Of a DNA stretch of 20,145 nt, positions 3,451 to 20,145 are shown piece after piece. The first letter of the stretch is position 1. Every line of letters starts with the position of its first letter. Below the pieces are notes generated by a model that saw only the letters and a list, made by a program, of their open reading frames with translations, had not been told where the DNA came from and made no database searches. Made by a program: the position numbers and the translations under genes. Origin of the DNA: Catajapyx aquilonaris (lineage: Eukaryota); contig JYFJ02001358.1 in assembly GCA_000934665.2 (NCBI GenBank), positions 62,001 to 82,145 of the forward strand. Direction: 5' to 3'.

Positions 3451-4107
3451 AAAGTGGTAATACTGTTTTGTCTAGTTAATATTGTAGAGCTAAACAAACC
3501 CAGCGACTTGCCAATTTTCAGATGACATACTTCCCTTTAATTTACACTTTCTATGACCACAGTTCTTTGCAATATGCTAAATATAGTAACGGGTATTTTT
3601 AAAATGTCACACGCGATATGCCATTATTTTCTCCGTCTATCCGTTTACAAGTTAAGTGATAACGTCTGTAATTCATCCATAACCATGCTCTATCCAACGT
3701 GACACTTTCATTATTAACATGCAACCACATTAATATCATCAACAGATTCAACACACTGTATGTTCACAAGTATGATCAAATATTATCCCTTACTATAACA
3801 TGTGGGGGATATATGAACCCACCCCATTAACTTTATTCCGAGTACAAACGGACATAAATATAATTATTATGTATTATGGCAGAAAAACATGTAGAAGATG
3901 AGAAGCCCAACGGAAGATGACAGATTTGGCGTCTGAGACTTGGAGCAAGGCTGTGAACACCACGTCCAATGTCTTCCTCCGACATGCAGACGTACGGAAA
4001 TCAAAAGGGACAGCGGGTATGAGAAGTCGGCGGTCTTGATCCTCCTGCATTAAAGACAAGACGAAGTTAATCTACGTGAATAAAATGGGGGACGTGAAAC
4101 GAACCTT

Positions 4108-5494
4108 TCATCGCACTGGCGGCTTCCAAATGACCCGAAGCCCTGGCCTGACGACCAGGAACCCAGCTTCGTCCACCTCGTCCAGTCCAAGGCCACACAC
4201 AAACAATCTCTTCAGGTGGGGCAATCCCATGACGATCCTCTCCACTGCCTTCACCGTGACCTGGGTCTCGCTCAGGTGGAGGTGGGTCAGGTTGCGGCAG
4301 TGGGCCACAATGGCGTTGGCCACAGAATCATCCACCCCGTTCACGTAGCACAGCACCAGTTTCTGAAGTCGGCCAACCGTGGCGGAAGTAGAGAAGAAGG
4401 TGACTAGTGCCTCGGAGCTCAGCCGACGTGCCCTTCCGCTTATGGCGAGTTGCTTCAGGTGCCTCAGGCTGCCAACGTCATCCAGGAGGCTTCTGTCGCT
4501 TATTCTGTGCGGGGAGAGAAGGATCAGTCCTTGCAGATTCGGGCACCTCTGCACCAGCTGGTAGGACTCCTCCTCCTGAAACGGACCCACGGCCAGTTCC
4601 CGCAGGCGCCAACCGCAATGGTCGACGACAGCCTGAATCTCCGCATCGCAGGAGGGCTTTGGGTAGTAAAAGGTTCTGAGGGAAGCGTAGCCCGTGACTA
4701 CACCCAGAGCCGCTTCAGGGCTCTCAGTCACATTGCGGTCAACCCGGACAGACACAGTGTGCAGCTTTGAACACACCGAGAGAGTGTCGATCAGATGCTT
4801 GCTTCCCTCTGGTTGATTGAAGTTATGGAAAAGGACTCGCTCCAGGTTCTCGCACCTCTTGGCAAAATTGACCATCGTGTCCTTGCGCCTTGTGGTAATG
4901 TGATTCATGACCAGGAACTTGAAATCGGGGCAGCTTTCCGCCACGGCATCCAGCAAGTCATCAGGATTGGCACAGTGCTCAATCCACAGCATCCTGAGCA
5001 TGGACATCTTCCTGGCCAAAGCGGCTGCTTCCTCCCGTCCCACTTCCTCCCCGGTGAGATGCAGGCACTTCCACACCCCGGGGTCGCCCGACAGTCTGTG
5101 CCATTCCGCGCACACAAGCGGCGTCCGCAGCAGCTTGTCTTTAACGGACAGGTAGGTGAAGATCTTCAGCTTCAACTCGGTTGGAAGCCCCGGGAACGTC
5201 AGTCTTGCGTCCTGTGGATGTCAACACGGGTCAGATAATGGGGGTGCGGCTGTGCCAACTTACATCAGGTGCCTCCTGCTGCTGCTCCTGTTCCATGGGC
5301 TCTTCCTGCGGGGCATCCTCCTGGTCCTTGCTGCTCCCCATTCCAGCAGCCTCCGGTCCATTGTCCTCCGCAGCAGCCGCCTTCCTCCTCCTGCTGGGTC
5401 CGTACGTGATGACCCCCTTCCACTTCCCGCTGCCCGCTGGAGTCCGACGCTGGTGGCGGTGGCGGCGACGTCGACGGCGTCGTTCGGGAGCCAT
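4108..5494 (-). CDS. F-box/leucine-rich-repeat (FBXL-type) protein, 2 exons, ~444 aa
   Basis: Exon 1 5494-5264 (77 codons; Arg-rich NLS-like start MAPERRRRRRRH). Phase-0 intron 5263-5212 (52 bp, GTAAGT...CCACAG). Exon 2 5211-4108. F-box FPGLPTELKLKIFTYLSVKDKLLRTPLVCAEWHRLSGDPGVW is followed by cysteine-containing LRRs (CENLERVLF, CSKLHTVSV, CPNLQGLIL, CRNLTHLHLSETQVT, LPHLKRLFV). Candidate AATAAA on the minus strand at 3837-3832. Confidence 0.92.
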
Positions 5495-5703
5495 CTTGGA
5501 ACGGCTGGCGTCGCTCGACAAGGCAAAGGGGGTGGGTGGGTGGAATTAATCGGGCGCGTTCCCACCGCCGCATCCCCCAGATCGCGATTGGACGGTGCTG
5601 CCATCTGCCGAGTCAGCAGTTGGCAGGGGTCGGAACGCACCTGATGCGCAGTTGCCACATCGGCCTCCACCACACACAGTTGCCACATCATTTTCCAGCA
5701 ACA
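5495..5703. promoter_or_regulatory. Putative bidirectional promoter/5'UTR region between the FBXL and Tc1-derived genes
   Basis: Only 209 bp separate the two divergent ATGs. The region is CpG-rich, has an inverted CCAAT (GATTGG ~5586-5591), and carries a 13-bp direct repeat CAGTTGCCACATC at 5649-5661 and 5677-5689. Confidence 0.6.
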
Positions 5704-6991
5704 ATGCCGAAGCCTTACAGCGAGGATCTGAGGAGAAGGATCATCGGTACGTACCCCGAGCCTGCCATTGTCTTGTCATGAGCCATTGGGCATTGTTGCA
5801 GCGCTGTGTCGGAAGGGGCTGAGCTCGAGGGAGGTTGCGGCGCAGCTGCTGGTGAGCAAGTCCACGGTCAACACCATCTACTCCAGGGTCGCTGGGAGTG
5901 GGGATGCGGATGATGAGGAGGTTCTGCAGAAGGCTGTGGCCACACGGTACAAGGGAAGGTGCGGTCGATGGACAGGGAATGTCCGGCAGGCGGTGTCTTG
6001 TCAAAATGTTGTTCCGTCAGGTGCGGACGACCTCGATCGACCACCAGACTGGAGGACGCGCAGATTGCTGAGATGGGCCAGTTGGATGACCTGCCGTCCG
6101 CACCGGCCATCAGGCGAGACCTGGATTTGCAAGGGGTTGTGTCCGCACAGACCATACGCAACAGGCTGCGTGAACTCCGGCAGCGTTCGCGAACGCCCAC
6201 TCAGAAACCCACGTTGACCGAGGACAACAAGCGGGACCGCCTGCACTTTTGCCGTAATTTTAAAGCACCCTGCTTTCTAAAACCAGAGCCAGTTTACAAG
6301 TTCTGCTTCTCTTAGAGCAATACCAGTCATGGACTGCGGCCGATTGGGAGTCGGTTGTGTTCATGGATGAGTCGACAGTGGAGCTGGGCTGCTGGGGAGG
6401 TGAGATGCGCGTCTGGCCGCTTCCAGGAGACGATTCGCAGAGCATCCAGCTTGTGCAGGAAAGCGGCAAGTTTTCCATGGGTGTCCTCTCCTGGATGTCC
6501 ATCAACACACTGGGACCACTCCTGCCCGTGGGCGGACATACGAGGGCTGCGAATTATGTGAAGATGCTGGAAAGGGATATGCTGCCCTGGCTGGAGCAGG
6601 AGTATCCAGACGGGTGTTTTTACTTGGTCCGCGGTTGTTCTTCCATCCGCAGCAATCATGTGGCTCAATGGGTAATTTAATTCCGGACGTTAAGCTGAGC
6701 TAATAAATTGAACGGCTGAACCGATTTCAGTTGGAGCGAAACCCCAGCCTCATCTTCCTAGAGTGGCCTTCAAAAGACATGGACCTGAATCCGATCCAGC
6801 ATATTTGGCATCTGCTTAAGAAGCGGCTGTTGGGCCTGCGGTTTGCCAGCGAGGAAACCTTGTGGACCGCTATTCAAGAGCAGTGGTTCATCTTGCAACA
6901 GGACCCCTTAACAGTGCAATACCTGGTTGAGAGCATGCCCCGGAGGTTGGAAGAGGTGGTACGGAGAAAAGGAGGCTGGAGCCACTATTAA
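5704..6991 (+). CDS. Tc1-family transposase-derived protein, 5 exons, 349 aa, catalytic triad degenerate (candidate domesticated transposase)
   Basis: Exons 5704-5746, 5802-5958, 6021-6253, 6316-6671 and 6731-6991 total 1050 nt and are open throughout. Four GT-AG introns of 55, 62, 62 and 59 bp. HTH (GLSSREVAAQLLVSKSTVNTI), GRPR linker, second HTH (VSAQTIRNRL...QKPTLT), WESVVFMDES, WPSKDMDLNPIQHIW and terminal ESMPRRLEEVVRRKGGWSHY are all Tc1 hallmarks. Confidence 0.9.
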
Positions 6992-7229
6992 AATGGTCAA
7001 GTTATGCCGCAGTGATTCTCATTTCCTGAACCATCCAAAGAGGGGAATGTTTTTCAAAAAAAGGACACCTTCCCTGCTTCCCATTTGGTCCGAAGAGGGA
7101 GCCTCTGTTCCCTCCTCAGTTCAAAGATGGCCGCATCCTTGCCACCCGCTCTATTGCCACCCTTCAGGTGACGTTTCGGGTCCTGTCTCGCTCATTCCCT
7201 CCAGTTGAAGTTGTAACGACCAGATAAGG

Positions 7230-10200
7230 ATGTCCCCTCCGACTGGGCCTGGGGCAGGATCTCATGCCAACTGGAGGCCGCTGCTGGACCAGGAGGGCGT
7301 GAGGAGGTGGTGGACCACCACCATAGAAAAGGAGGACGAGCTGGGATGGGGGTTCACCAAGGAGGCACTGGAAGAACAGAAGAGGCAGAAGCCCCCGGTC
7401 AAACTCAGGCGCAGGTGGAAGGAAAACGCGCAGAGAGTCATGCCCACTGTACGTTGTGTGTAGCGCACTTTTGATAGGCTCAGGTTTGAAGATCAATTAC
7501 GTTATGCCCACACACACTCGTTTTCTTTCAAGCCCCAAGAGGAGCTGAAGACTATACCGGGGAAGCTAGCCCTCTGCCTGTTCTGCGGGTTTCGGAGTAG
7601 CATTGTTAATCGGTGCCAGCGATGTCGTCACAAGCTGCCGGACGATGTGAAACTGTTGGATGGAATAGGGATGTATCCTGGGGTCAGCTACATCATGGCC
7701 CGACAACAGGAGAGGGTGAGATACAACTCCCCGTCTGGATCGCCCACACCCATAGTGGTCACCTCCAACACCACTATTCCAGGAGGGGCAGCCATGCTCC
7801 CATTTACCAAGGACCGACTTGACTCAAAGGACCGTGTTCACCAGCGAGTCTTGCTCACTGTACGTTGTAGCAGATTAAGGCGCACTTTTGATAGGCTCAG
7901 GTGTGAAGATTAATTATGTCATGCACACTAGTTTCCTGTCAGGGCCCAAGAGGAGCTGAAAACTATACCGGGGAAGCTAGCCCTCTGCGTGTTCTGCGGG
8001 TTTCGGAGTAGCATTGTCAATCGGTGCCAGCGATGTCGGCGCAAACTGCCGGACGATGTGCAACTGTTGGATGAGAAGGAGGGCCAGAAGGGGATGCATG
8101 CTGGGGTCAGCTACGTCATGTCACGACAGCAGAACAGGGTTGGGCAGAACTCACTGTCTGGATCGCCCACACCCAGAGTGGTCACCTCCAGCACCACTAT
8201 TCCAGGAGGGGCAGCCACGCTCCCATTTGCCAAGGACCGATTTGACTCAAAGGACCATGTTCACCTCAACATGGCCTTGCGACAGGGAGGAACGGCCCAG
8301 AGGGGGGGAAGGCAGCGGAGAATCTTTGACAAATCAGGTGAGTCCGCATGGTCAGCTTGCTCCCATGGCTTGTAGCTCGCTTTACAAACACTGCAGCACT
8401 CCCCACTAACTAATCTATTGGTATTTCCGTGCCACAGAAAATTTGAACTTATTCTGCACCATGCTTTGGGAAGGTGGCTATTTCATACTACATACTAGAA
8501 AATCCCTCGCTACACTATAGCCTAGGCGTAGAAAACTCGCTTTTTTCTAGGCCTGCGGCATGCAGTGCCCAGCATATTTTAAATTGCTTTGGACTTATAG
8601 CCAGTGGTGATGCCCATCCCCCAATAATATGCATACCCCCCACCCAACCTGTTCCTGCATGCATTCACATATCACATCCGTGATTCCGTACCCTGCGACC
8701 CATCTGCAATCCCACTTTTGCATTGGGAGGGAAGTATGCATTTGCCAAATACTTTTTTAATGTTTAAAAAACCCCAATCGTTGTATTAACAGAAATGAAC
8801 AACCTCTACCACCTCTACTCGCATGCACTTGCGTGGGTATCAAACTGATATGCTGCAGACTTTCCCACCACGTTTTTCGAACTGCTCATAACTCCCCTTT
8901 GTTCTAAACGTCCATGGAACTCTGCAGTGTTTGTAGCAGACGATCAAAAACTGACGTCAGTCTCCCCGACACTTTCTTTTGACATTCTCGACCTATCCCA
9001 GCATGTATGCATGGCAGTGTGCATTTTCTTGAGATTTGCTTCCATGCAGCATGTGTCGAGAAAGAGGAGGGGAAATTGAAAAGCAGGTTTCATCTTCCTG
9101 CGTAATTCTTCCTGAGCTAGTGCAGCAAAAAATGTCAACATTTTGGAGCTAATTTCACCGATAACAACTGGTTCAAAGGAATTCATGACCAGAAGAGTTT
9201 TGTAAACCACCGGGAAAGCAGGAGAGTGTCAAGGATGTTCAGGCGATGCCTGAGGCTTATTTACGTTCAGCCTGATTAATTATCTGTCTCAATTTCAAAC
9301 AGCTAGGCGTAATGACCAAACTTAATTTCAAGTCAGAATGTGGGAGGAGGTTAATAGTTCGCAACATGTTACCATAGTGCAAGCCACTCGTGCCACTCCC
9401 AAAATAGATCAGGAGCATTGGCATTTGCTTGCCAATAGATAAACAGACAGAGTCATGGCATTTTGAAAGACTTCTGATGAATTTAGTGATGCGGAAAGGA
9501 TCAGACACAACTCAAGAGTTGCCGAAGAACACTTCAGTTTATCAGTAGTCATTCAGTCCCAAATGTTGATTGGACCTGAAATTACGTGGGCAAGCAATGT
9601 GATCACTAATTTTGAAATGTGCTTAATGTATGTCTGTTGAATGTTTGCATAGTTGGGCAAAATTCTGCTGCAAATGTGTTGGGTGATTTGGCTGCCTTTT
9701 TGTTCTGTCCTGATATGCATCGTTTCACTTGTTGCATCTCTGTAATACCTGTTGTTATCCTATGAATAGCTGGCCAACAAGTATTGAACCCAGAGTCGAA
9801 CTGGCGGCATGAGAAGGAGCCCATCATCTTCTCTGACTCGGAGGAGGAGAGCAAGAGTTCCATCGAGGGAGGCGGGAGAGGGGACCAGTGCAACAACCAC
9901 ACTGCAGCAGCATCGGCCGTGTCCGTTCAACCACCACCCCTGCCCTTGCAGCAGCCTCCCTCCAACCTGCCAACCATCAACGCCAGCGACATGGACACCA
10001 CTGACGGGAACTTCACCATGATTAAATGCCGCAGCGTCAGGATTGGGTCGTACAAGGTCATGCCCCTCGACAAGGTCCTCTTCAACACCACTGGCATTCA
10101 AATCACTGTCCCCGGGATTAAAAACAGTGAGTTTAAATACGTCTCAAATCTTGGTAACCAGAATTACCCCCATCATGGTAACCACACTGGAACAGTGCTG

Positions 10201-10861
10201 GAACAGTCTCCATGAAACCATGGTTTGTTGGTTGTTCCTTGGGAGGTAGGCATGGAAACGATTGTCATTGATGCTGTGTGGTTACCACGGTGGAGGTTAC
10301 TAGGGTGACTGAGGGAAGTTGTGTGGAATGCATGGAGCATCATCTGTCCCGTGGAAAGGTTGGCAGAGGGGAATAACGGCAGCTTGAACTTCTCTTTCAG
10401 GCGAGGAGGTGGTGCGGGTGGTGCTGTACCGACAGGATTTGCTGAAGGTGCTGGTCCACCTGGGCCGCAGCCTGCCAGTGATATTTGTGTACGTGGGTCC
10501 AGAGTGCGCTCGGCGGGTGTGCCAGCACCTGTGCATGACGCGAGGCAGCGAGCCCTTCTTCGACCCAAGCAGCTCAAACAACACTTTCAGGCGAGTGACC
10601 CTCCTACCTGACATCCTGAGGGAGGACGATAAGCGAATCCTGCGCAGCCTCTTTTCTGAACCTGTGAACCTGATAGACGAACTGGACCAGAGTGAGGCCA
10701 ACGAGATCTTGGTCAGGTCATCTCCTAGAGAGACTGCTGGGGGAAGGGGGTCGGGAGGGGGCAGCACAGGCACAACCGCAGGGACAATTCTCATCCACAC
10801 CCACACTGGACACGGTTCACAGGTGGTCAGGATGTCACTCACAAGTCCTCATCACCAGTGA
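7230..10861 (+). pseudogene. SENP6/7-like SUMO protease partial paralog, copy 1 (N-terminal/middle exons only, no Ulp1 catalytic domain seen)
   Basis: Exon-like blocks: ~7230-7430; CxxC-CxxC exon twice (7533-~7842 and ~7943-8337, donor GTGAGT at 8338); 9770-10126 (EPIIFSDSEEE; CRSVRIGSYKV); 10401-10861 (DLLKVLVHLGRSLPVIF...FFDP...RRVTLLP...EANEILVRSSP, then stop). These motifs match the pre-catalytic region of arthropod SENP6/7 as I recall it. Whether it is expressed or a pseudogene is unresolved. Confidence 0.7.
7432..8264 (+). repeat. Tandem duplication (~410 bp unit) covering intron plus Cys-cluster exon
   Basis: Units ~7432-7842 and ~7843-8264 both read ...CACTGTACGTTGT...GCGCACTTTTGATAGGCTCAGG...CCCAAGAGGAGCTGAA...TGACTCAAAGGACC.TGTTCACC. 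Confidence 0.88.
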
Positions 10862-10871
10862 CCTCTTCTGA

Positions 10872-11064
10872 AACAGGACCCCTGAACAGTACAATACCTG
10901 GTTGAGAGCATGCTGCGAAGGTTATTGGAAGAGGTGGTATGGAGAAAAGGAGGCTGGACCCACTATTAAAAAGGATTAAGTTATGCCGCAATGATTCTCA
11001 TTTCCTGAACCATCCCAGATTCAAAGAGGGGAATATTTTTTTTTAAAGGACAGCTTCCCATTTG
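10872..11064 (+). repeat. Degenerate duplicate of the Tc1-derived gene 3' end and downstream flank (copy of 6897-7087)
   Basis: AACAGGACCCCT...TACCTGGTTGAGAGCATG...GGAAGAGGTGGTA.GGAGAAAAGGAGGCTGGA.CCACTATTAAAA...GATTCTCATTTCCTGAACCATCC...GCTTCCCATTTG is shared, with substitutions and small indels. Confidence 0.9.
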
Positions 11065-12146
11065 CTCTACTAGAATTTTCCTAGGTGACCGTAAAATCTT
11101 AATCGTGAGTTCCAGCTAAACAGTTACAATAGTTATCAAAAGATTGATAAGTACATAATCAATCAAAATCTCATGCTCTTTAACTCTGAGTATTTAAAAA
11201 ATAAAGCAATAATACTTGATTTGGTTTTGCAGCCATTTTTTCAAAGATAGTGACTGTAACAGGTAGGAAATCATGCTAAGTAACAAGTCCATTTTGTAAC
11301 TTTTAGCAGCCTTAAAAACTTCCCACAAACAGATCCAAATTGACATTAACCCTTCGACAGCGGAGTTTTTGCAGCCCTCATCAAATGGTTAAAACGACTA
11401 TTTTGAACAGTAATTCAGAAGAGGGTAGTAACTGTCTTTGTCACATGGATTGTGGCTATCGTTTTCTAAATGAGGAATTTAATGCTCTATAAATTTCATG
11501 AAATGAGCTTGGCACAATAATGGGCATCACACTAATGTGGGAGCCATTTGTATGGTTCCATTCAAAGAGCCAGTGGCTGTTTCTGGCATTTAACAGATAC
11601 TTGCCCTAATGTATTAGCAGCTCTTGGTTAGTCAGAGAGACGGAAATATTCCACCCCGTGTCTGAATAGTGGTGTAACTTTGATACAATTGACTGAAACC
11701 TGTGGAATAGAAATGCAAGCATGTACTGATTATTACATTACGTAGTTGCAACGTACACAATTAATTTCAAGTCATTATTGTCACAAATGCCATCACTGTA
11801 GGAGTGTCAAATGCGGCCAAATGTCTTGGGAGTTGTTTTCTAGAAATGTTAAGGATGCACATCCATTCGATTGATTTCTTTATTTCTTATTCTGGGACCC
11901 AAGGCTTTGAAACTTGGATTTGGTCACCTGGAAGGGATTCTAGCCACGCTTATTTCATACTGTACAATTTGTTGCCGTCAAAGAGACACCCAGGCATTAT
12001 TATTGTTTGGCACTCGATATTTCCCTCTTCACAATGGACTAATGCATTTGTGACGTGAGCGTCTCCTGGCTACCCTATACAGAATTGGACGTGTTTTTGA
12101 TCCGCTCCTGCTATCCTAGTTCAGGAATCTGCATGTGACTCCGCCA

Positions 12147-12420
12147 TTATTTGGTCGAGTTCGAGGACATTAGTTCGTGTAAGGGACGGTCCCATGGTAG
12201 CCATTACACCTTGATCATACCTAAGGACATGGCGATCACATTGGAGACTTTGAAGATCGATCTAAGAGCAATGCTCCAAAAGGACACCCAGGTCTGTGTT
12301 ACCAAGTTGGAGGAGAAGGTGGCAACCACCCGGAGAGAAGTCACCGACCTCGGCTGGGTTCGAACCCACAACCTTGGGACCAGAGGCGAGCGCGCTATAA
12401 CCACCGGCGTCGGCTAACCT
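12147..12420 (-). mobile_element. tRNA-derived SINE-like element
   Basis: The minus strand reads GGTGGTTATAGCGCGCTCGCCTCTGGTCCCAAGGTTGTGGGTTCGAACCCAGCCGAGGTCG: a degenerate A box and a B box (GGTTCGAACCC, ~12356-12367). I could not fold a full cloverleaf. The 3' boundary is approximate. Confidence 0.6.
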
Positions 12421-15399
12421 ATAGAGCTGTGGGTCATCACCCAACTTCTACTGCTGTTCCTATTGTTTCGGGGCCAGAATAAGTCCTGGAGCGGCCAAAG
12501 CTGTAGGGCGTGATTTTTCTCCCGGTACGACGGTGTGTTCATTGAACATGGGTCTGCACAAGAAGAAAAACTACCCATCGCACCGAAAGAAAAGGTCCTC
12601 AAGGACGGGCCCTGCAGGCTTATTTATTTCGAAATAAGAAGCAGCAGCGCAGTCAACCAGCAGCAGTGTGCGACATGGAGAGCCGCAGCCAACCAACTCT
12701 TGACGACATTACACTACCGGCAGCGGAATCAGATTTACAAAATGTACTCGGGTAAGCTTCATCTTATATAGGCAACACATGTGACACATAAATACGATAA
12801 CCAGCATTATTATAACCAGCAGAAGCGGGATTTCAGTTCAAACGTTTAGTGAAAGTACATTTAAGGGATGGGCAATCACTTCCCTCCAGTTCCTTTCCAA
12901 CTCTGCTGCTGTGCATATAGGAATTATGACAAAGTCTCGACCGACACAATAAAGACGAGCTGGACATGATTGCTTTGCATTAAAAATTTGAAAGTAGGAA
13001 TGTGACCAACTACAATTCATTCAATTATTCATCAGGTTGGAATTAATTCCGAATTAATTGACAGAGTCATGAAAGAATAATGAGTCAATAATACCCACAT
13101 GATGAGAACAGTGTTTGTGAGAAAAGGGGGCTTTGAAGGTCAGCATACCTATGGGTCATTCCATGTCAATACACACACAGACAAGTTGGTGGCCCTGGCA
13201 TCTCGGACTTTGATATAAAAATAATCATGTGCCTACACATACACATGAGCTGTTGCTAAAGACGAAATTAGAGCCACCCAGGTGAAAACCCCACGGAGAT
13301 ATAATGTCAACGCAACAATGCAGCCGGACTTGACAATAATTTATTTCAGGTAGAGTTCTTGTTGTAACCCCGCGTGATCACATATCGACATTTTTGCGAT
13401 AGAGCGGACATGAAGCGACGATAATTTTTTCCGTTGAATACCGCATTTGATCGCACCAATCGGATGCTCAACATCTCTACTAAACAATGCCAACCTTGGC
13501 CAGTGTTGCTGTTCTTTGGCACCAGCTGCTCATACGTTCAACATAACTGTGCTCGCCAAAGGCCTTTTGGTGTCTGGGGACACGCGCGGCTTATTTTGGC
13601 GCCTCTGTAAGCATTGCCATTCATTCGATCACTTCTCAAGTGTGTCTGTTGGATGCAGCTTGATGTCCTCTTTCGATTGGTGTGCTTAAATTGTCGGAGG
13701 GTGATCTCTGTGTGCTTCAGTTTCAGTAACTAACCAGAGTCATCCGAAAGCTTTGGTTCGTTACCAAAAATTACCAAAAAATTCCTGTACACACCTTATG
13801 CCAATGATTTGGAGCGTCAAACTTGGAAACCTCTGTGGGAGTCGCGTAATACATCAGTGTCCCAAGATTCAGCACAATTCCATACCTCCATGTATTTATT
13901 TGGACGGTATAACGAACCAAGCCATTTTCCTGATGCCGCCGAGCGTGCTCCCTCAGATCTCGGCTCGGATAATAATAAGCAATAATCCACGCCCAATAAT
14001 GCAGAAATTGTTATGCAATGGTTTTCAATGGCGCTGATTTCAGATCCGATGTCAGAAATTCAAAAATCAAAGTGGTTGATCCAATATGGCAGACAGCATG
14101 TGCAGAGAATTGGACAGATATACACAGTATTAGCGTCAAAATTAGTTTACGGCGGCTTTATAGGGCTCTGATTTCAAATTCAATGAACGTTGAGAAGAAC
14201 CAAAGACTATAATAGCTGCCTCCACCTGCCACCTTGACCGCTACAGAGACAATTATTAGTGTGTAAAGGGAAGTTATATGAGCAGGTAGAAAAGCGTGGT
14301 CCGAAAGGGTGCATATATGACTTAGCTGCTTAGATACATGTGTGCGAGTGCATGCGAGTGCGGTAGAGGTTGTTAATTTATGTTCATACAATAATAAATT
14401 GTTTTTTTGTTTTTTTTTTAATTGCAAAGGTATGGGAATATGTTGAGCTGGGCAAATGCATCGCACTGGCAATATAAGACCGAAGCGATTGAAAATATGG
14501 TGGGCACGCGGTAGGCCGCATCAGGCCTAGAAAAGAGCGAGCGAAGCGAGTGGTTTTGTAGGCCAAGCGCCCTAGGAAATTGCGAGCGGAGCGATGAGGG
14601 TTTTCCTATCCAAGAGAGAGTGATTTAGTGGAGGCGGTACGTTCGAGATTCCATAAAAAAAAGCGGCAAATCGTGATAAAAGCAAGCCGCTTTGCAGGAT
14701 TGTAGTTTAGACCAAAATAAGCGATTTTGCCCGTGGCGCCATCATCTTTTTCGTCCCTTAGGACCCAAGATGGCGGCCGGTTTTCAAAAAACGTAAAAAA
14801 TTCTGTAACAAAGCGGCAAATTACTATAACGGCAAGCCACTTTGTAGGAATATTGTCTACACACCAAGGACCGATTTCCCCCGTAGCGCCATCTTTTTTA
14901 ACCCTTAGATCCAAGATGGCGACCGATTTTCCAAAATGGCTGGGAAAATTTGAAAATAATCTTACTTAGTCGTGTAAGGTGTCGTTTAGGTGAAATTATG
15001 TGCTTCTGAAACTAAATCAACCATCGTGAAATGGATCCAATCTACCATTACGGCTCCATCGACAGCATTTTAAAAACTTAGGCCTACTGCAAATTGGGAG
15101 AGGTCTGTGCTGCCTCGAAATAAAAACCTCTTGGGTATGGCATTTATTTCCGACTACTCTTGGCATTTTGAGGCTAAATGTGACATCAGCAAAAGTTGTT
15201 TGAAGGAATTTAATCTCCTTAAATTTAATTTAATTCGCCTTATAATAAACACAAACACACACCCACACACACACCCACCCAAGCTTTATATTCATGTGTC
15301 CCCTAGAGAAGTCTTGATTTTCCTTTTCATGAGTCCTGGAACAATTATTTAATCCGCAGTTTTTATTGCCATGTGTCAATAGATAAACGTACATTCATA

Positions 15400-15938
15400 C
15401 CTTTTGTTTGAACATTCACCCTTGCAGTTCTTGCAGCCAGGTGTGCAAAGCAGCTGAGCTGCATGGCAGGGGCACCGAAGGGTTTGGCAGGCTGTCCTGC
15501 ATTTGCACAGATCTAGGGCTCTGCCTGACTCCCAAATGCTTGGGAGGGTGGTCCATATGGGCTCCCATCCACTTGATTGTAAGGTCTACCCCGATGACGA
15601 GGGATCCGGAGGAGGATCTCCATGAAAGATGAAGAGACCTGCCCCACACCTGACCAGCCTGGTATGCTGCTCGTAGCAATGCTGATGGAGTGCATCTGAA
15701 GTTGGCGGCATCAGGTAGAGGGGTTTGTTCTCCCCGACGAACATATCCCTCCTGAGCATGTCCACGCTTGTGTGCTTGCACTTTCCACCGTACATAATCG
15801 CATTAAAATGTTCTAGTGCATGAATGGTATTTGCAGACAGTTTGTCAGTAGTCACGATAGCTTGAAATGCTTCAGTGGCTTATTCCCCAGACGCTCTCCA
15901 TGCCCTGAATGCAGAGTTCTTGCCCTTTCCTGAGAAAT
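15400..15938 (-). pseudogene. Academ-type transposase C-terminal remnant (end of XPG-like domain plus Cys-rich finger)
   Basis: FSGKGKNSAFRAWRASGE*ATEAF...LMPPTSDALHQH/LLRAAYQAGQVW/PPDPSSSG*TLQSSGWEPIWTTLP...CKCRTACQTLRCPCHAAQLLCTPGCKNCKGEC. It contains two in-frame stops and compensating frameshifts. Confidence 0.8.
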
Positions 15939-15940
15939 CC

Positions 15941-16234
15941 TTTATTTTATTTTCCAATTTTTCTTTTAACTTCCACTCCGGTACAAGGAATCAAGGAATT
16001 TGGGTAAGGATAGGGATTTTTCGGGGAGGGGACACGGGTGCAGGTGCAATGCCGTTAAATGGGTCATGTGCTCATGTGCAGTCCCCCAGGAGGTTAGGTT
16101 GCCAGACACCTCCTTGGTGCAGGTCAGACACCCTCCTGACGCAGGTGAAAGGAAAGTTCCCCAGGCGGGGATCGAACCTGGGGCTTTTCACTCAGCAAGC
16201 CGAGACGTTACAATCTCGGCCACCACACCTCCCC
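15941..16234 (-). mobile_element. tRNA-derived SINE nested in the Academ element
   Basis: Minus-strand head GGTGTGGTGGCCGAGATTGTAACG (A box) ... GGTTCGATCCC (B box, 16168-16178), a unique body, and an A-rich tail (plus-strand T-rich 15941-15967). Confidence 0.7.
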
Positions 16235-16235
16235 T

Positions 16236-16379
16236 GTAATGGCACATGTACTCGGAGAGAAGAAATCTGCTGCGCTTAGAGGATTCCACGCCAACTCCGG
16301 TTGTGATGACACTGTGTCATATTTCTCAGGAAAGGGCAAGAACTCTGCATTCAGGGCATGGAGAGCGTCTGGGGAATAG
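16236..16379 (+). pseudogene. Inverted fragment of the same Academ transposase (H3TH motif of XPG/FEN1-like domain)
   Basis: VMAHVLGEKKSAALRGFHANSGCDDTVSYFSGKGKNSAFRAWRASGE*. Positions 16321-16384 are the reverse complement of 15875-15938 (63/64 identical). Confidence 0.8.
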
Positions 16380-16779
16380 GCCACGGTCGCCATCTTGGAT
16401 CTAAGGGTTAAAAAAGATGGCGCTACGGGGGAAATCGGTCCTTGGTGTGTAGACAATATTCCTACAAAGTGGCTTGCCGTTATAGTAATTTGCCGCTTTG
16501 TTACAGAATTTTTTACGTTTTTTTGAAAACCGGCCGCCATCTTGGGTCCTAAGGGACGAAAAAGATGATGGCGCCACGGGCAAAATCGCTTATTTTGGTC
16601 TAAACTACAATCCTGCAAAGCGGCTTGCTTTTATCACGATTTGCCGCTTTTTTTTGGCGTACCTCCTGCACTAATTCCCCCGCCAGCAGCCCCAGCAGCC
16701 CCACATGATGATGCCCACATGTTTGGGCCCCGCCACGAGCATCAGTGGGACTCTCGACTCTCGAGTGTCACGCATGCAG

Positions 16780-16920
16780 TCGTCTGTTTGTTACCCCTAT
16801 CTCCAGCATTGCGTTGAAGGCCATCATTCTCTCCAAGGGCCACCTGGACGATGAGCGGCTTCCAGTGAGTTGGTTCTTCGTCAAGCGATGGCCATCATAT
16901 AACCCCTCTACACGTGGGCT
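16780..16920 (-). pseudogene. Possible decayed piggyBac-type transposase fragment
   Basis: TGSRSSSRWPLERMMAFNAMLEIGVTN resembles the piggyBac SRRTRRWP...F..MLDI...N segment after the last catalytic Asp. The GGVD motif is not recognisable. Confidence 0.35.
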
Positions 16921-17030
16921 TGCCCACACCTCTTCCTCTTCTGCAGATCTTGGCCTGGATGGCAAATCATGCGTGTGGCACTTGACATATGATATTACAA
17001 CACCTGTACTTCTTGTGTTATTGCAGGAAC

Positions 17031-20000
17031 ATGTCACAGGCAGTGACCATCAGGATAAAGAAGGAGGTGAAGGAGGAGGAAGAAGAAGGAACAATCACAG
17101 TGGATGAGGAGAGTTGGAGGATGCATGTCAATCAGGATGCCCCTTATTCCCCGTGGTTTATTGCTCATGGTGCAAAACATGTAGAGGACACGCTTTGTCA
17201 GATCAAGGAGGAGGAGCCAGCAGAGGAGGAGGAGGAGGAGATGGTGGTGGTGGGCATGTCCATCGGGGAGGTCCAAGACGACCCTTTGGCTTCTGGAAGG
17301 ATTTCTGAAGTGAGCAATATGCTGGAAACTCATTGCCATGTTATTCACACTCAGGTCGCACCACCACACTATATATTATCGTATAACACGCAGTTTTTTT
17401 GGTCCATGGGAATTCATTGCTATTTCTGTGCTCTACGCTGCTTGTGACCCGGGATTCTGTCTGAACTCTGTTTTTGACCTTGGGCCAGTCAAAAAGCATC
17501 ATTCTTTGAAACATTGGGGCCATGTCAGAGAATATGACAGACATTTTTTCCAAGATATATCACTAACATTCAGGGACCAAAGATCCTGGGCATGTGACTG
17601 ATGGAATGCCATCTGCTGATACCCACTCTAGACGTTTTTGGGCCTAGTTCAAATCTTTCGCTTACCTGAGGTTGTTACGACAACGATATAAGGGAACGGA
17701 GGATATAGGGAGGAGTGTCTGGGACGGGTGGGGATGACCCCTCCCACTGGGCCTGGAGGATCCCAGGCCAACTGGAGGCCGCTGGACCAGGGCGTGAGGA
17801 AGAGGAGGACCAGCACCAGACAAAAGGAGCAGGATATGGGATGGGGGGCCAGCAAAGAGGCACAGGAGGAGGATAAGCCTAAGCCGGATGATATGGGGAA
17901 GGGAAAGTATGTATCCTGCAGGCATAGGCTAGAAGGGTTCGACACCCTAGATGGGGATAGACAGGTTGGACGCAGATTGGAACGCCAGGAGAAGCCCATG
18001 CCCACATTGAGGGTCACGTTTAAGGAACAGGTGCAGAGAGAGTCATACGCACTGGTCCATTGCAGCACTGGTCGATACGCCATGTTTTGAATCAATAGTC
18101 ATGCCGCATATTTCTTTCCAGCCCCAAGAGGATCTGAAGACTATACCGGGGAAGCTAGCCCTATGCCTGTTCTGCGGTATTCAGAGTAGCATTGTCAATC
18201 GGTGCCAGCGATGTCGGCGGAAACTGCCGGATGATGTGAAACTGTTGGATGAGAAGGAGGGCCAGAAGGGGATGCATCCTGGGGTCAGCTACGTCATGTC
18301 CCAGCAACAGAACAGGGTTGGGCAGAACTCACTGTCTGGATCGCCCACACCTATAGTGGTCACCTCTAACACCACTATTCCGGGAGGAGCAGCCACGCTC
18401 CGGTTTGCCAAGGAGCGATTTTACCCAAAGGACCAGAGAGCAGTGCATGTTCACCTCAACGTGGCCTCGCCACAGGGGGGAAGGCCCCAGAGGGGGGGAA
18501 GGCAGCGGAGAGTCTTTGACGAACCAGGTGAGTCCGCATGGTCAACTTGTTCCCATGGCTTGTGGCTTGCTTTTCAAACACTGCAGCCCTCCCCACTTCC
18601 TGATCTATTGGTATTTCCTTGCCACAGAATATTTGGACTTATTCTGCCCCATTCTTTGGGAAGGTGGCTATTTCATACTACATACTAGAAAAACCGTCGC
18701 TACACTTGCATTTTTCTATGGCCCAGGTGTAGAAGATCACTGGCTTTGTTCGCTTTTTTCTAGGCCTGCGGCATGTTACCATAGTGCAAGCCACTCGTGC
18801 CACTCCCAAAATAGATCAGGAGCATTGGCATTTGCTTGCCAAGAGATAAACAGACAGAGTCATGGCATTTTGAAAGACTTCTGATGAATTTAGTGATGCG
18901 GAAAGGATCAGACACAACTCAAGAGTTGCCGAGGAACACGTCAGTTTATCAGTAGTCATTCCGTCCTCGCCTCGTGCCAAATGTTGATTGGACCTGAAAT
19001 TATGTGGCCAAATAATGTGATCACTAATTTTGAAATGTGCATAATGTATTTCTGTTGAATGTTTGCATAGTTTGGCAAAATTCTGCTGCAAATGTGTTGG
19101 GTGATTTGCCTGCCGCTTTGTTCTGTCCCGATCTGCATCGTTTCACTTGTTGCATCTCTGTAATAGCTGTTGTTATCCTTTGAATAGCCGGCCAACAAGT
19201 ATTGAACCCAGAGTCGAACTGGCGGCACGAGAAGGAGCCCATCATCTACTCAGACTCGGAGGAGGAGAGCAAGAGTTCCATCGAGGGAGGCGGGAGAGGG
19301 GACCAGTGCAACAACCACACTGCAGCAGCATCGGCCGTGTCCGTTCAACCACCACCCCTGCCCTTGCAGCAGCCTCCCTCCAACCTGCCAACCATCAACG
19401 CCAGCGACATGGACACCACTGACGGGAACTTCACCAGGATTAAATGCCGCGGCGTCAGGATTGGGTCGTACAAGGCCATGCCTCTCGACAAGGTCCTCTT
19501 CAGCACCACTGCCATTCAAATCACTGTCCCTGGGATTAAAAACAGTGAGTTTAAATACGTCCCAAGTCTTGGTAACCAGAATTACCCCCGTCATGGTAAC
19601 CACACTGGAACAGTCTCCATGAAACCATGGTTTGTTGGTTGTTCCTTGGGAGGTAGGCATGGAAACGATTGTCGTTGTTGTTGTGTGGTTACCACGGTGG
19701 AGGTTACTATGGTGACTGAGGGAACTTGTGTGGAATGCATGGAGCATCATCTGTTCCGTGGAAAGGTTGGCAGAGGGACATAACGGCGTGAACTTCTCTT
19801 TCAGGCGAGGAGGTGGTGCGGGTGGTGCTGTACCGACAGGATTTGCTGAAGGTGCTGGTCCACCTGGGCCGCAGCCTGCCAGTGATATTTGTGTACGTGG
19901 GTCCAGAGTGTGCCCGGCGGGTGTGCCAGCAGCTGTGCATGACGCGAGGCAGCGAGCCCTTCTTCGACCCAAGCAGCTCAAACAACACGTTCAGGCGGGT

Positions 20001-20145
20001 GACCCTCCTCCCTGACATCCTGAGGGAGGAGGATAAGCGAATCCTGCGCAGCCTCTTTTCTGAACCTGTGAACCTGATAGACGAACTGGACCAGAGTGAG
20101 GCCAACGAGATCTTGGTCATGTCTTCTCCTAGAGAGACTGCCGGG
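17031..20145 (+). CDS. SENP6/7-like SUMO protease-related gene, copy 2 (3' end beyond the window)
   Basis: Phase-compatible model: 17031-17309 (donor GTGAGC), 18122-18527 (CLFCG...RCQRC, donor GTGAGT), 19188-19544 (EPIIYSDSEEE, CRGVRIGSYK, donor GTGAGT), 19805->20145 (open to the window end). An optional exon 17671-18030 is in phase but contains TAA at 17689-17691. Blocks of ~17670-20145 are closely similar to ~7205-10742. Confidence 0.7.

Follow-up and report, generated by a model that had tools for sequence, protein, structure and literature searches.

A probable domesticated Tc1 transposase gene with four introns and lost catalytic residues in Catajapyx aquilonaris

A stretch of 20,145 nucleotides (nt) from Catajapyx aquilonaris (contig JYFJ02001358.1, positions 62,001 to 82,145 of the forward strand; hereafter the window) contains, at window positions 5704 to 6991, a gene for a protein of the Tc1 transposase type. 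We give somewhat better than an even chance to the best-supported reading of this Tc1-type gene, a stand-alone gene of the host that goes back to a Tc1 transposase of the DD34E type and is retained in catalytically inactive form. Judged from its sequence, it is a probable domesticated transposase. The properties expected of a host gene are present: the open reading frame of 349 amino acids (aa) is intact, it is transcribed, and its structure is of the host type with four GT..AG introns. The gene lacks terminal repeats and is located between an F-box/leucine-rich-repeat (LRR) gene, to which it lies head to head, and a downstream gene, termed gene A.

The Tc1-type gene is composed of five exons on the plus strand (5704..6991), which join into a coding sequence of 1050 nt with zero internal stops. 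Translation begins at the ATG at 5704 and ends at the TAA at 6989-6991, in the last exon, and all four introns are bounded by GT..AG. A preliminary description of this DNA had proposed four canonical introns of 55-62 nt and an uninterrupted 349-aa Tc1-type protein, which is borne out by joining of the reading frames. The Met at 5704 lines up with the first Met of relatives in the protein alignment; an alternative in-frame ATG 60 nt upstream (~5644) would add 20 residues if transcription begins further upstream. Exons and introns are as follows, with splice evidence taken from the X5 contigs described below.

5704..5746, plus strand: exon 1; codons 1-14 plus 1 nt, placed by frame joining and the relatives' first Met
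5747..5801, plus strand: intron 1; 55 nt, GT..AG, its splicing backed solely by an 8-letter loose end of one X5 contig
5802..5958, plus strand: exon 2; first (PAI-like) helix-turn-helix (HTH), with sub-threshold Pfam HTH matches only
5959..6020, plus strand: intron 2; 62 nt, GT..AG, an X5 contig skipping 62 nt at 5956>6019 (cut +2)
6021..6253, plus strand: exon 3; GRPR motif at 6025-6036 (residues 69-72) and second (RED-like) HTH
6254..6315, plus strand: intron 3; 62 nt, GT..AG, skipped by an X5 contig at 6253>6316
6316..6671, plus strand: exon 4; first half of the DDE core, with D162 at 6366-6368, R250 at 6630-6632 and G251 at 6633-6635
6672..6730, plus strand: intron 4; 59 nt, GT..AG, skipped by an X5 contig at 6670>6730 (cut +1)
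6731..6991, plus strand: exon 5; C-terminal part of the core, with Q286 at 6797-6799 and the TAA at 6989-6991

Transcription and splicing of the gene are seen in assembled contigs of sequencing runs. X1 and X4 are DNA runs from one sample, possibly the window's own source, and X5 comes from a second sample and study of the same organism. Contigs of all three were compared with the window over 3900-8600; matches are of at least 88% identity, and some records were filtered out. X5 contigs join 5956>6019, 6253>6316 and 6670>6730 at GT..AG, so that introns 2, 3 and 4 are skipped exactly. One further X5 contig starts with 8 letters identical to the end of exon 1, placed directly before exon 2 (place 5801). 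Spliced sequence across the junctions had been proposed as a check on the gene, and it is found across introns 2-4, with the 8-nt tail of exon 1 ahead of exon 2. The same data set also splices the neighbouring genes, at 4043>4104 and 5210>5263 in the F-box gene and at 7448>7533 and 7859>7932 in the downstream gene. X1 and X4 contigs are continuous across all introns that X5 skips, and X5 is therefore taken to be derived from complementary DNA. X5 contains 64% of sampled words, near the exonic share; none of the 5 runs listed for the organism is on record as RNA. The splicing evidence comes from a single data set, and its contigs cannot show level, strand or intron retention. All three data sets carry the sequence of the Tc1-type gene without a difference.

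Transcription of the gene would begin in a short region adjoining the F-box gene. The F-box transcript reaches 5571, 133 nt from the ATG, and the contig of the next gene begins at 7132, 141 nt past the stop. In the orientation of the Tc1-type gene, the upstream region lacks any exact match to the 5'-end motif of this locus. The candidate control region is:

5572..5703, no strand assigned: putative bidirectional promoter, between the 5' end of the F-box transcript (an X5 contig reaches 5571) and the ATG; the promoter function is predicted

The relationship of the protein to Tc1 transposases is established over its whole length. Exon 3 matches the Pfam family HTH_Tnp_Tc3_2 (E 7.2e-11, 42.6 bits, cut-off 31.5), exon 5 reaches DDE_3 below the cut-off (17.9 bits, cut-off 28.6), and for exon 4 by itself Pfam yields nothing at E<=1. 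Exon 5 also aligns to the catalytic domain of Sleeping Beauty SB100X in structure 5cr4 (residues 154-229) with an E of 7.8e-10. Against solved structures in the PDB, exon 4 alone gives chance-level matches only, 5cr4 not being among them at E<=10. With exon 4 as the query, an exhaustive HMMER search finds 163 proteins at E<=1e-3, five at <=1e-10 and none at <=1e-30, the best at 70.6 bits. HTH_Tnp_Tc3_2 and DDE_3 are both present in 15 of the 16 top matches that were scanned, and the long relatives among these matches are strings of two or three transposase copies. When the spliced protein is used, 147 of the 150 matches listed lie at E<=1e-3. The best single-domain match, P0025 (343 aa, with DDE_3 and HTH_Tnp_Tc3_2), reaches 150 bits (E 6e-46) over residues 6-349. 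A language-model search for look-alikes places exon 4 as a Tc1-like DDE domain with a score of 0.95.

Two further searches return no relatives. A word-indexed protein search finds none for exon 4 or exon 5, and the F-box gene, used as a control, is equally blank. These blanks are uninformative on lineage restriction, because a host gene such as the F-box gene is blank as well. A metagenome scan with exon 4 gives 45 loci, mostly on gut metagenome contigs, all of which are spurious matches of 16-25 residues, with zero relatives among them.

The lineage within the Tc1 group can be read from the spacing of the catalytic residues. In the nearest relatives 34 or 35 residues separate the second Asp from the Glu by a hand count on the alignment, and in P0030 and P0105 the number is 34, likewise counted by hand and not computed. 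The lineage is therefore that of the DD34E-type Tc1 family. The order of domains, HTH, GRPR, HTH and DDE core, is also that of Sleeping Beauty and other Tc1 DD34E transposases. Unlike them, the Tc1-type gene has introns, has no terminal inverted repeats (TIRs), and lacks the second Asp and the Glu.

The DDE triad is needed for catalysis in Tc1/mariner transposases. For assessment of these residues, a profile was built from 8 full-length relatives and all matches were aligned to it. Among the homolog domains, 56 span the conserved columns, and in 52 of these the triad reads D-D-E. In the Tc1-type protein the first catalytic Asp is kept as D162 (6366-6368), as the preliminary description had stated. 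The column of the second Asp falls in a gap between R250 and G251, and residues 244-260 contain zero D or E, whatever the alignment. Q286 occupies a column that is Glu in 97% of 102 aligned relatives, and in the alignment to 5cr4 it stands opposite the Glu of the ..NPIE.. motif of SB100X. The pattern had been described as D-G-34-Q. Its spacing is exact, with 34 residues from G251 to Q286, and its change of Glu to Gln stands; a change of Asp to Gly is one of two equivalent readings, given the gap at R250/G251. Alignment to DD34E-type relatives, which had been suggested as a check, thus confirms the loss of the second Asp and the replacement of Glu by Gln. A His conserved in 98% of relatives near the second Asp is also replaced, by I255. 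From the lost residues and the established requirement for the triad, the protein is predicted to be catalytically inactive.

The loss is concentrated in the active site. The protein retains 26 of the 33 columns conserved at >=80%. Of the 7 columns lost, 5 belong to the two catalytic motifs: the second Asp, His to I255, Ser to D279, Pro to M280 and Glu to Q286. Its conserved-column score is 0.79 against a homolog median of 0.91, and 7 of the 56 homologs score equal or lower. Region by region, the ratio of the protein's identity to the 8 relatives over their identity to one another is 0.90-1.08, and the N-terminal region is as similar to relatives as they are among themselves. Since these identities are normal, the protein is not generally decayed, and the active site is what is missing. 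An unusual divergence of exon 4, an idea raised by its blanks in Pfam and the PDB, is rejected, the ratio for that exon being 0.90 of among-relative identity. The preliminary description had also held that both HTH modules are kept. This holds for the second HTH, which lies above the Pfam cut-off, and is less certain for the first, which gives sub-threshold matches.

The gene has the copy number and flanks expected of an immobile sequence, as far as matches of >=88% identity show. One contig of X1 and X4 spans 3900-7028 without difference, and the summed depth over the bins of 5627-6882 equals that of the single perfect contig (33.5 in X1, 19.7 in X4). No second contig of the gene body (5627-6882) at >=88% identity is present in X1 or X4, a favourable outcome, down to that identity, of the copy-number check suggested earlier. 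TIRs had been reported as absent, and the flanks agree: the best flank-to-flank local alignment is reached by 70 of 500 shuffles with wide flanks and by 72 of 500 with tight flanks. The 16 weak inverted pairs around the gene include none at plausible element ends, and no TIR or TA duplication is found. TACAGT/ACTGTA, an end motif of Tc1-type elements, is absent from 5300-7400. The best pair, 13 nt long and inverted, at 5490-5502 and 7119-7131, was considered as a TIR and rejected, since each arm is a copy of the AAGATGGC motif found at the neighbouring genes' 5' ends. The lack of TIRs and the single copy, within the 88% identity limit, correspond to the loss of mobility expected of a domesticated gene.

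The four introns fall inside stretches that align without gaps to intron-less relatives. They are therefore read as gains and not as intronised coding sequence. These alignments partly show that the gain dates from the time in which the transposase was a gene, or from later. An 8-nt direct repeat, AGGTGCGG, flanks intron 2 at 5957-5964 and 6019-6026 and may be the footprint of an intron gain mechanism; at introns 1, 3 and 4 the boundary ambiguity is <=1 nt. An origin by tandem duplication of adjoining exon sequence is unsupported, with intron-exon local alignments matched by 153-995 of 1000 shuffles. Among eight introns compared, only intron 1 with intron 2 (z 4.0) and two introns of gene A (z 24.8) are alike. 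The composition of the coding sequence is, by codon position, host-like: GC is 0.58/0.44/0.71 in the Tc1-type gene and 0.61/0.41/0.72 in the F-box gene. Introns and intergenic DNA have a GC of 0.39-0.57, below the coding GC at third positions (GC3) of 0.71 in the Tc1-type gene.

A duplication that begins inside the gene provides a decayed counterpart of its 3' end. The window contains a tandem segmental duplication of ~4 kb, with units at 6894-10868 and 10869-20145, the second running off the window end. The left breakpoint lies inside the last exon of the Tc1-type gene, which makes the gene older than the duplication. At its left end, the second unit carries the following fragment:

10869..11059, plus strand: decayed 3' duplicate of the Tc1-type gene; terminal 95 nt of the coding sequence with ~85 nt of 3' flank (copied from 6894-7074), 85% identity

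Over 31 codons the fragment has acquired an in-frame stop, a 3-nt insertion, a P to L change where 85% of relatives have Pro, and an R to W change. In these codons T to S is the parent gene's sole departure from the family consensus. This direction, parent intact and fragment decayed, is what purifying selection on the parent would predict, in small numbers. The fragment is transcribed as sequence after the stop of the upstream gene (X5 loose end at 6897).

Known systems share parts of this organisation. SETMAR, a fusion of a SET domain with a mariner transposase of the DDD type, and the pogo-derived CENP-B, TIGD and JRK are host genes that keep the DNA-binding region. The Tc1-type gene resembles them as a probable host gene from a transposase of the Tc1/mariner/pogo superfamily with its DNA-binding region. 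Unlike SETMAR, it has no fusion partner, with its stop in the last exon and its first Met at the transposase start; unlike CENP-B, TIGD and JRK, it does not derive from the pogo family.

Tc1-like genes with introns but no TIRs, and host genes derived from Tc1/mariner, have been published before (10.1101/656579; PMC13548663). Tc1-like elements with introns (TLEWI) are described from pteriomorph bivalves by Puzakov et al. (10.1101/656579). These have 2-5 introns, an intact DD36E and a length of 2.2-11.5 kb, with no GRPR-like motif in any, and their authors discuss them as candidates for co-option (10.1101/656579). The Tc1-type gene is like TLEWI, as described there, in its open reading frame split by GT..AG spliceosomal introns (four here), its lack of TIRs and target-site duplications, its very low copy number and its spliced transcripts. 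It is unlike them in the 34 residues from G251 to Q286, a DD34E-type spacing in place of DD36E, with the second Asp and the Glu lost; in its GRPR at residues 69-72; and in its size of 1.29 kb with introns of 55-62 nt. The TLEWI signature as described there (DD36E with a motif beside the second Asp, and absence of GRPR), is thus not found in this gene.

Guseva et al. describe five Tc1/mariner-derived genes of Drosophila, namely LOC26532114 of the obscura group, CG14478, CG4570, cag and toy (BMC Biol 2026, PMC13548663). LOC26532114 is like the Tc1-type gene a stand-alone gene with near full-length transposase similarity, a lost recognisable DDE and a gained intron (PMC13548663). Both start tens of bp from a divergent neighbour, with a bidirectional promoter that is shared in LOC26532114 (PMC13548663) and putatively shared here. 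The Drosophila gene has one intron, located in its 5' untranslated region (PMC13548663), whereas the four introns here are inside the coding sequence. It also has orthologs, microsynteny and a ratio of nonsynonymous to synonymous change (dN/dS) of 0.7 (PMC13548663); kinship with the gene described here beyond the superfamily is not implied. The Tc1-type gene combines features of TLEWI and of LOC26532114. A literature search, made without the organism name and hence weak, found no description of this particular gene.

The strongest competitor to host retention is an immobilised, low-copy, intron-bearing Tc1-like element of the TLEWI kind, transcribed beside an active promoter, functionless and decaying, which we regard as possible and hold with lesser confidence. 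TLEWI also have low copy numbers, no TIRs, GT..AG introns and spliced transcripts, yet are mostly damaged (10.1101/656579). The lack of an own-orientation 5'-end motif upstream means that transcription could be a by-product of the F-box promoter, and protein searches found no ortholog, the F-box control gene being equally blank in the word-indexed search. Against such a relic stand 349 codons free of stops and frameshifts and four precise splice junctions, 26/33 conserved columns and a host-like GC3 of 0.71, and the duplicated 3' fragment, which gained a stop and indels over the same period. At an assumed 3-7% neutral change per lineage, a frame of 1050 nt would be expected to hold several stops or frameshifts, by a rough estimate.

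The gene may instead be one copy of an intron-containing Tc1 family that is still mobile, the other copies lying below 88% identity or being poorly assembled and short TIRs having been missed; this appears improbable. Tc1-type ends can be short, the contig comparison was limited to >=88% identity with some records filtered out, and a partial second copy is present at 10869-11059. This copy, however, is explained by the colinear tandem duplication and not by transposition. Two of the three catalytic residues, kept in 52/56 relatives, are lost here, no inverted repeat of the flanks is above chance, and the flanks are taken up by the transcribed 5' ends of the neighbours (X5 contigs reach 5571 and start at 7132). 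That the gene is an artefact of assembly or an open frame arisen by chance, to which the lack of a Pfam match for exon 4 alone might point, is refuted for practical purposes: X1 and X4 from one sample and X5 from a second sample and study carry identical sequence, spliced contigs exist, and a 343-aa Tc1-type relative is matched over the whole length at 150 bits (E 6e-46).

Several observations weigh against the reading of a retained host gene. Copies of less than 88% nucleotide identity would escape the X1 and X4 contig comparison. The kind of X5 is not on record, its origin from RNA being deduced from the intron-skipping contigs, and removal of intron 1 rests on 8 letters. The HTH matches of exon 2 are all below threshold (GerE 20.3 bits; HTH_23 18.5 bits, cut-off 24.6). 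Over long stretches, exon 4 shares <=41% identity with its best library relatives, and P0025, the best full-length relative among the matches listed, is only 31% identical. The polarity of the decayed fragment rests on 31 codons and ~5 events. The catalytic residues are already gone, a point in favour of the relic reading. With these points set against the splicing, copy and catalytic-loss checks, all of which are favourable, the earlier proposal of a host-retained inactive transposase is partly supported, and the DNA-binding or dominant-negative function that it included stays conjectural.

The surroundings of the Tc1-type gene are transcribed and densely packed. The minus-strand gene at 4108-5220 encodes an F-box/LRR protein (Pfam F-box-like, 2.6e-10), in agreement with the FBXL-type neighbour named in the preliminary description. 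Judged by features only, look-alikes of this protein are most frequent in Chordata and Arthropoda. Some contigs of X1, X4 and X5 follow the F-box gene only as far as 5137 or 5180 and then diverge, which suggests one or more transcribed paralogous F-box genes elsewhere in the genome. The eight introns seen in X5 contigs of the compared stretch are 52-84 nt long and the intergenic spacers are ~130-140 nt, so the genome is very compact at this locus. The window contains no Rfam family and no transfer RNA gene found by ARAGORN.

The segmental duplication carries gene A (~7130-8560; plus strand, 7464-8375) and gene B (~9365-10861; plus strand, 9766-10861), neither of which matches a Pfam family. 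Its colinear blocks have identities of 80-95%:

7228-7375 with 17732-17870: colinear duplication block
7522-8562 with 18111-18775: colinear duplication block
9365-10741 with 18772-20145: colinear duplication block

Divergence between the two units is now 5-20%. An insertion of 6.6 kb (11060-17730) sits in copy 2, and copy 1 has an extra ~800 bp (8562-9365). Within gene A is an internal tandem duplication (7513-7662 with 7924-8073, and 7668-7842 with 8091-8265) of period 411-423 nt and 88-92% identity, which is missing in copy 2 of the segmental duplication. The gene A introns at 7449-7532 and 7860-7931 are copies of each other. An inverted pair at 8536-8900 and 14265-14541, of 72-79% identity, is located in the two insertions by which the duplication copies differ and is probably a dispersed repeat. 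DNA-contig depth climbs to ~600 at 8453-8600.

With 9 occurrences in the window, the octamer AAGATGGC exceeds its expectation of 0.99, and none of 100 shuffles attains that count. Sites fall on or close to the 5' ends of two genes, the F-box gene (minus strand) and gene A (plus strand), and inverted pairs of the octamer occur inside the 6.6-kb insertion. The octamer resembles what we take to be a YY1-type start-site motif, an unconfirmed label. Its sites are:

1491, 5490, 7124, 14767, 14888, 14913, 16389, 16414, 16536: AAGATGGC octamer

If the Tc1-type gene is a retained host gene, its action may be pictured in three steps. The protein would be unable to cut DNA, with the second Asp, the adjoining His and the Glu replaced. 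It would be transcribed from the ~130-bp upstream region common to the F-box gene. In the nucleus it would bind DNA through its HTH modules, either at sites from the ends of related Tc1 elements, where it could curb their mobility by competition or as an inactive partner, or as a host DNA-binding factor of the ordinary sort. Both the DNA binding and the dominant-negative action are proposed from the domains and the lost residues. A fuller version remains tentative, and we think it rather doubtful in its entirety: a complete DD34E-type Tc1 transposase would have been made an ordinary host gene that gained four coding introns, the second of them still between its 8-nt direct repeats, took up the bidirectional promoter of the F-box gene and specifically lost its catalytic carboxylates, with the rest of the fold under selection, and would now serve as a sequence-specific DNA-binding silencer or tether of relatives of its own transposon family.

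To our knowledge, domestication of Tc1-family transposases proper is rarely documented, whereas cases from pogo, mariner and piggyBac are many. A single sequence here displays the steps in compact form: loss of the ends, gain of four introns, putative capture of a neighbour's promoter and selective catalytic loss. If the fuller version is true, the protein would be a full-length "dead transposase" repressor, as opposed to the usual truncated or fused forms. If orthologs exist, the intron gains could be dated, and the role that a full-length inactive transposase plays for its host could be tested directly.

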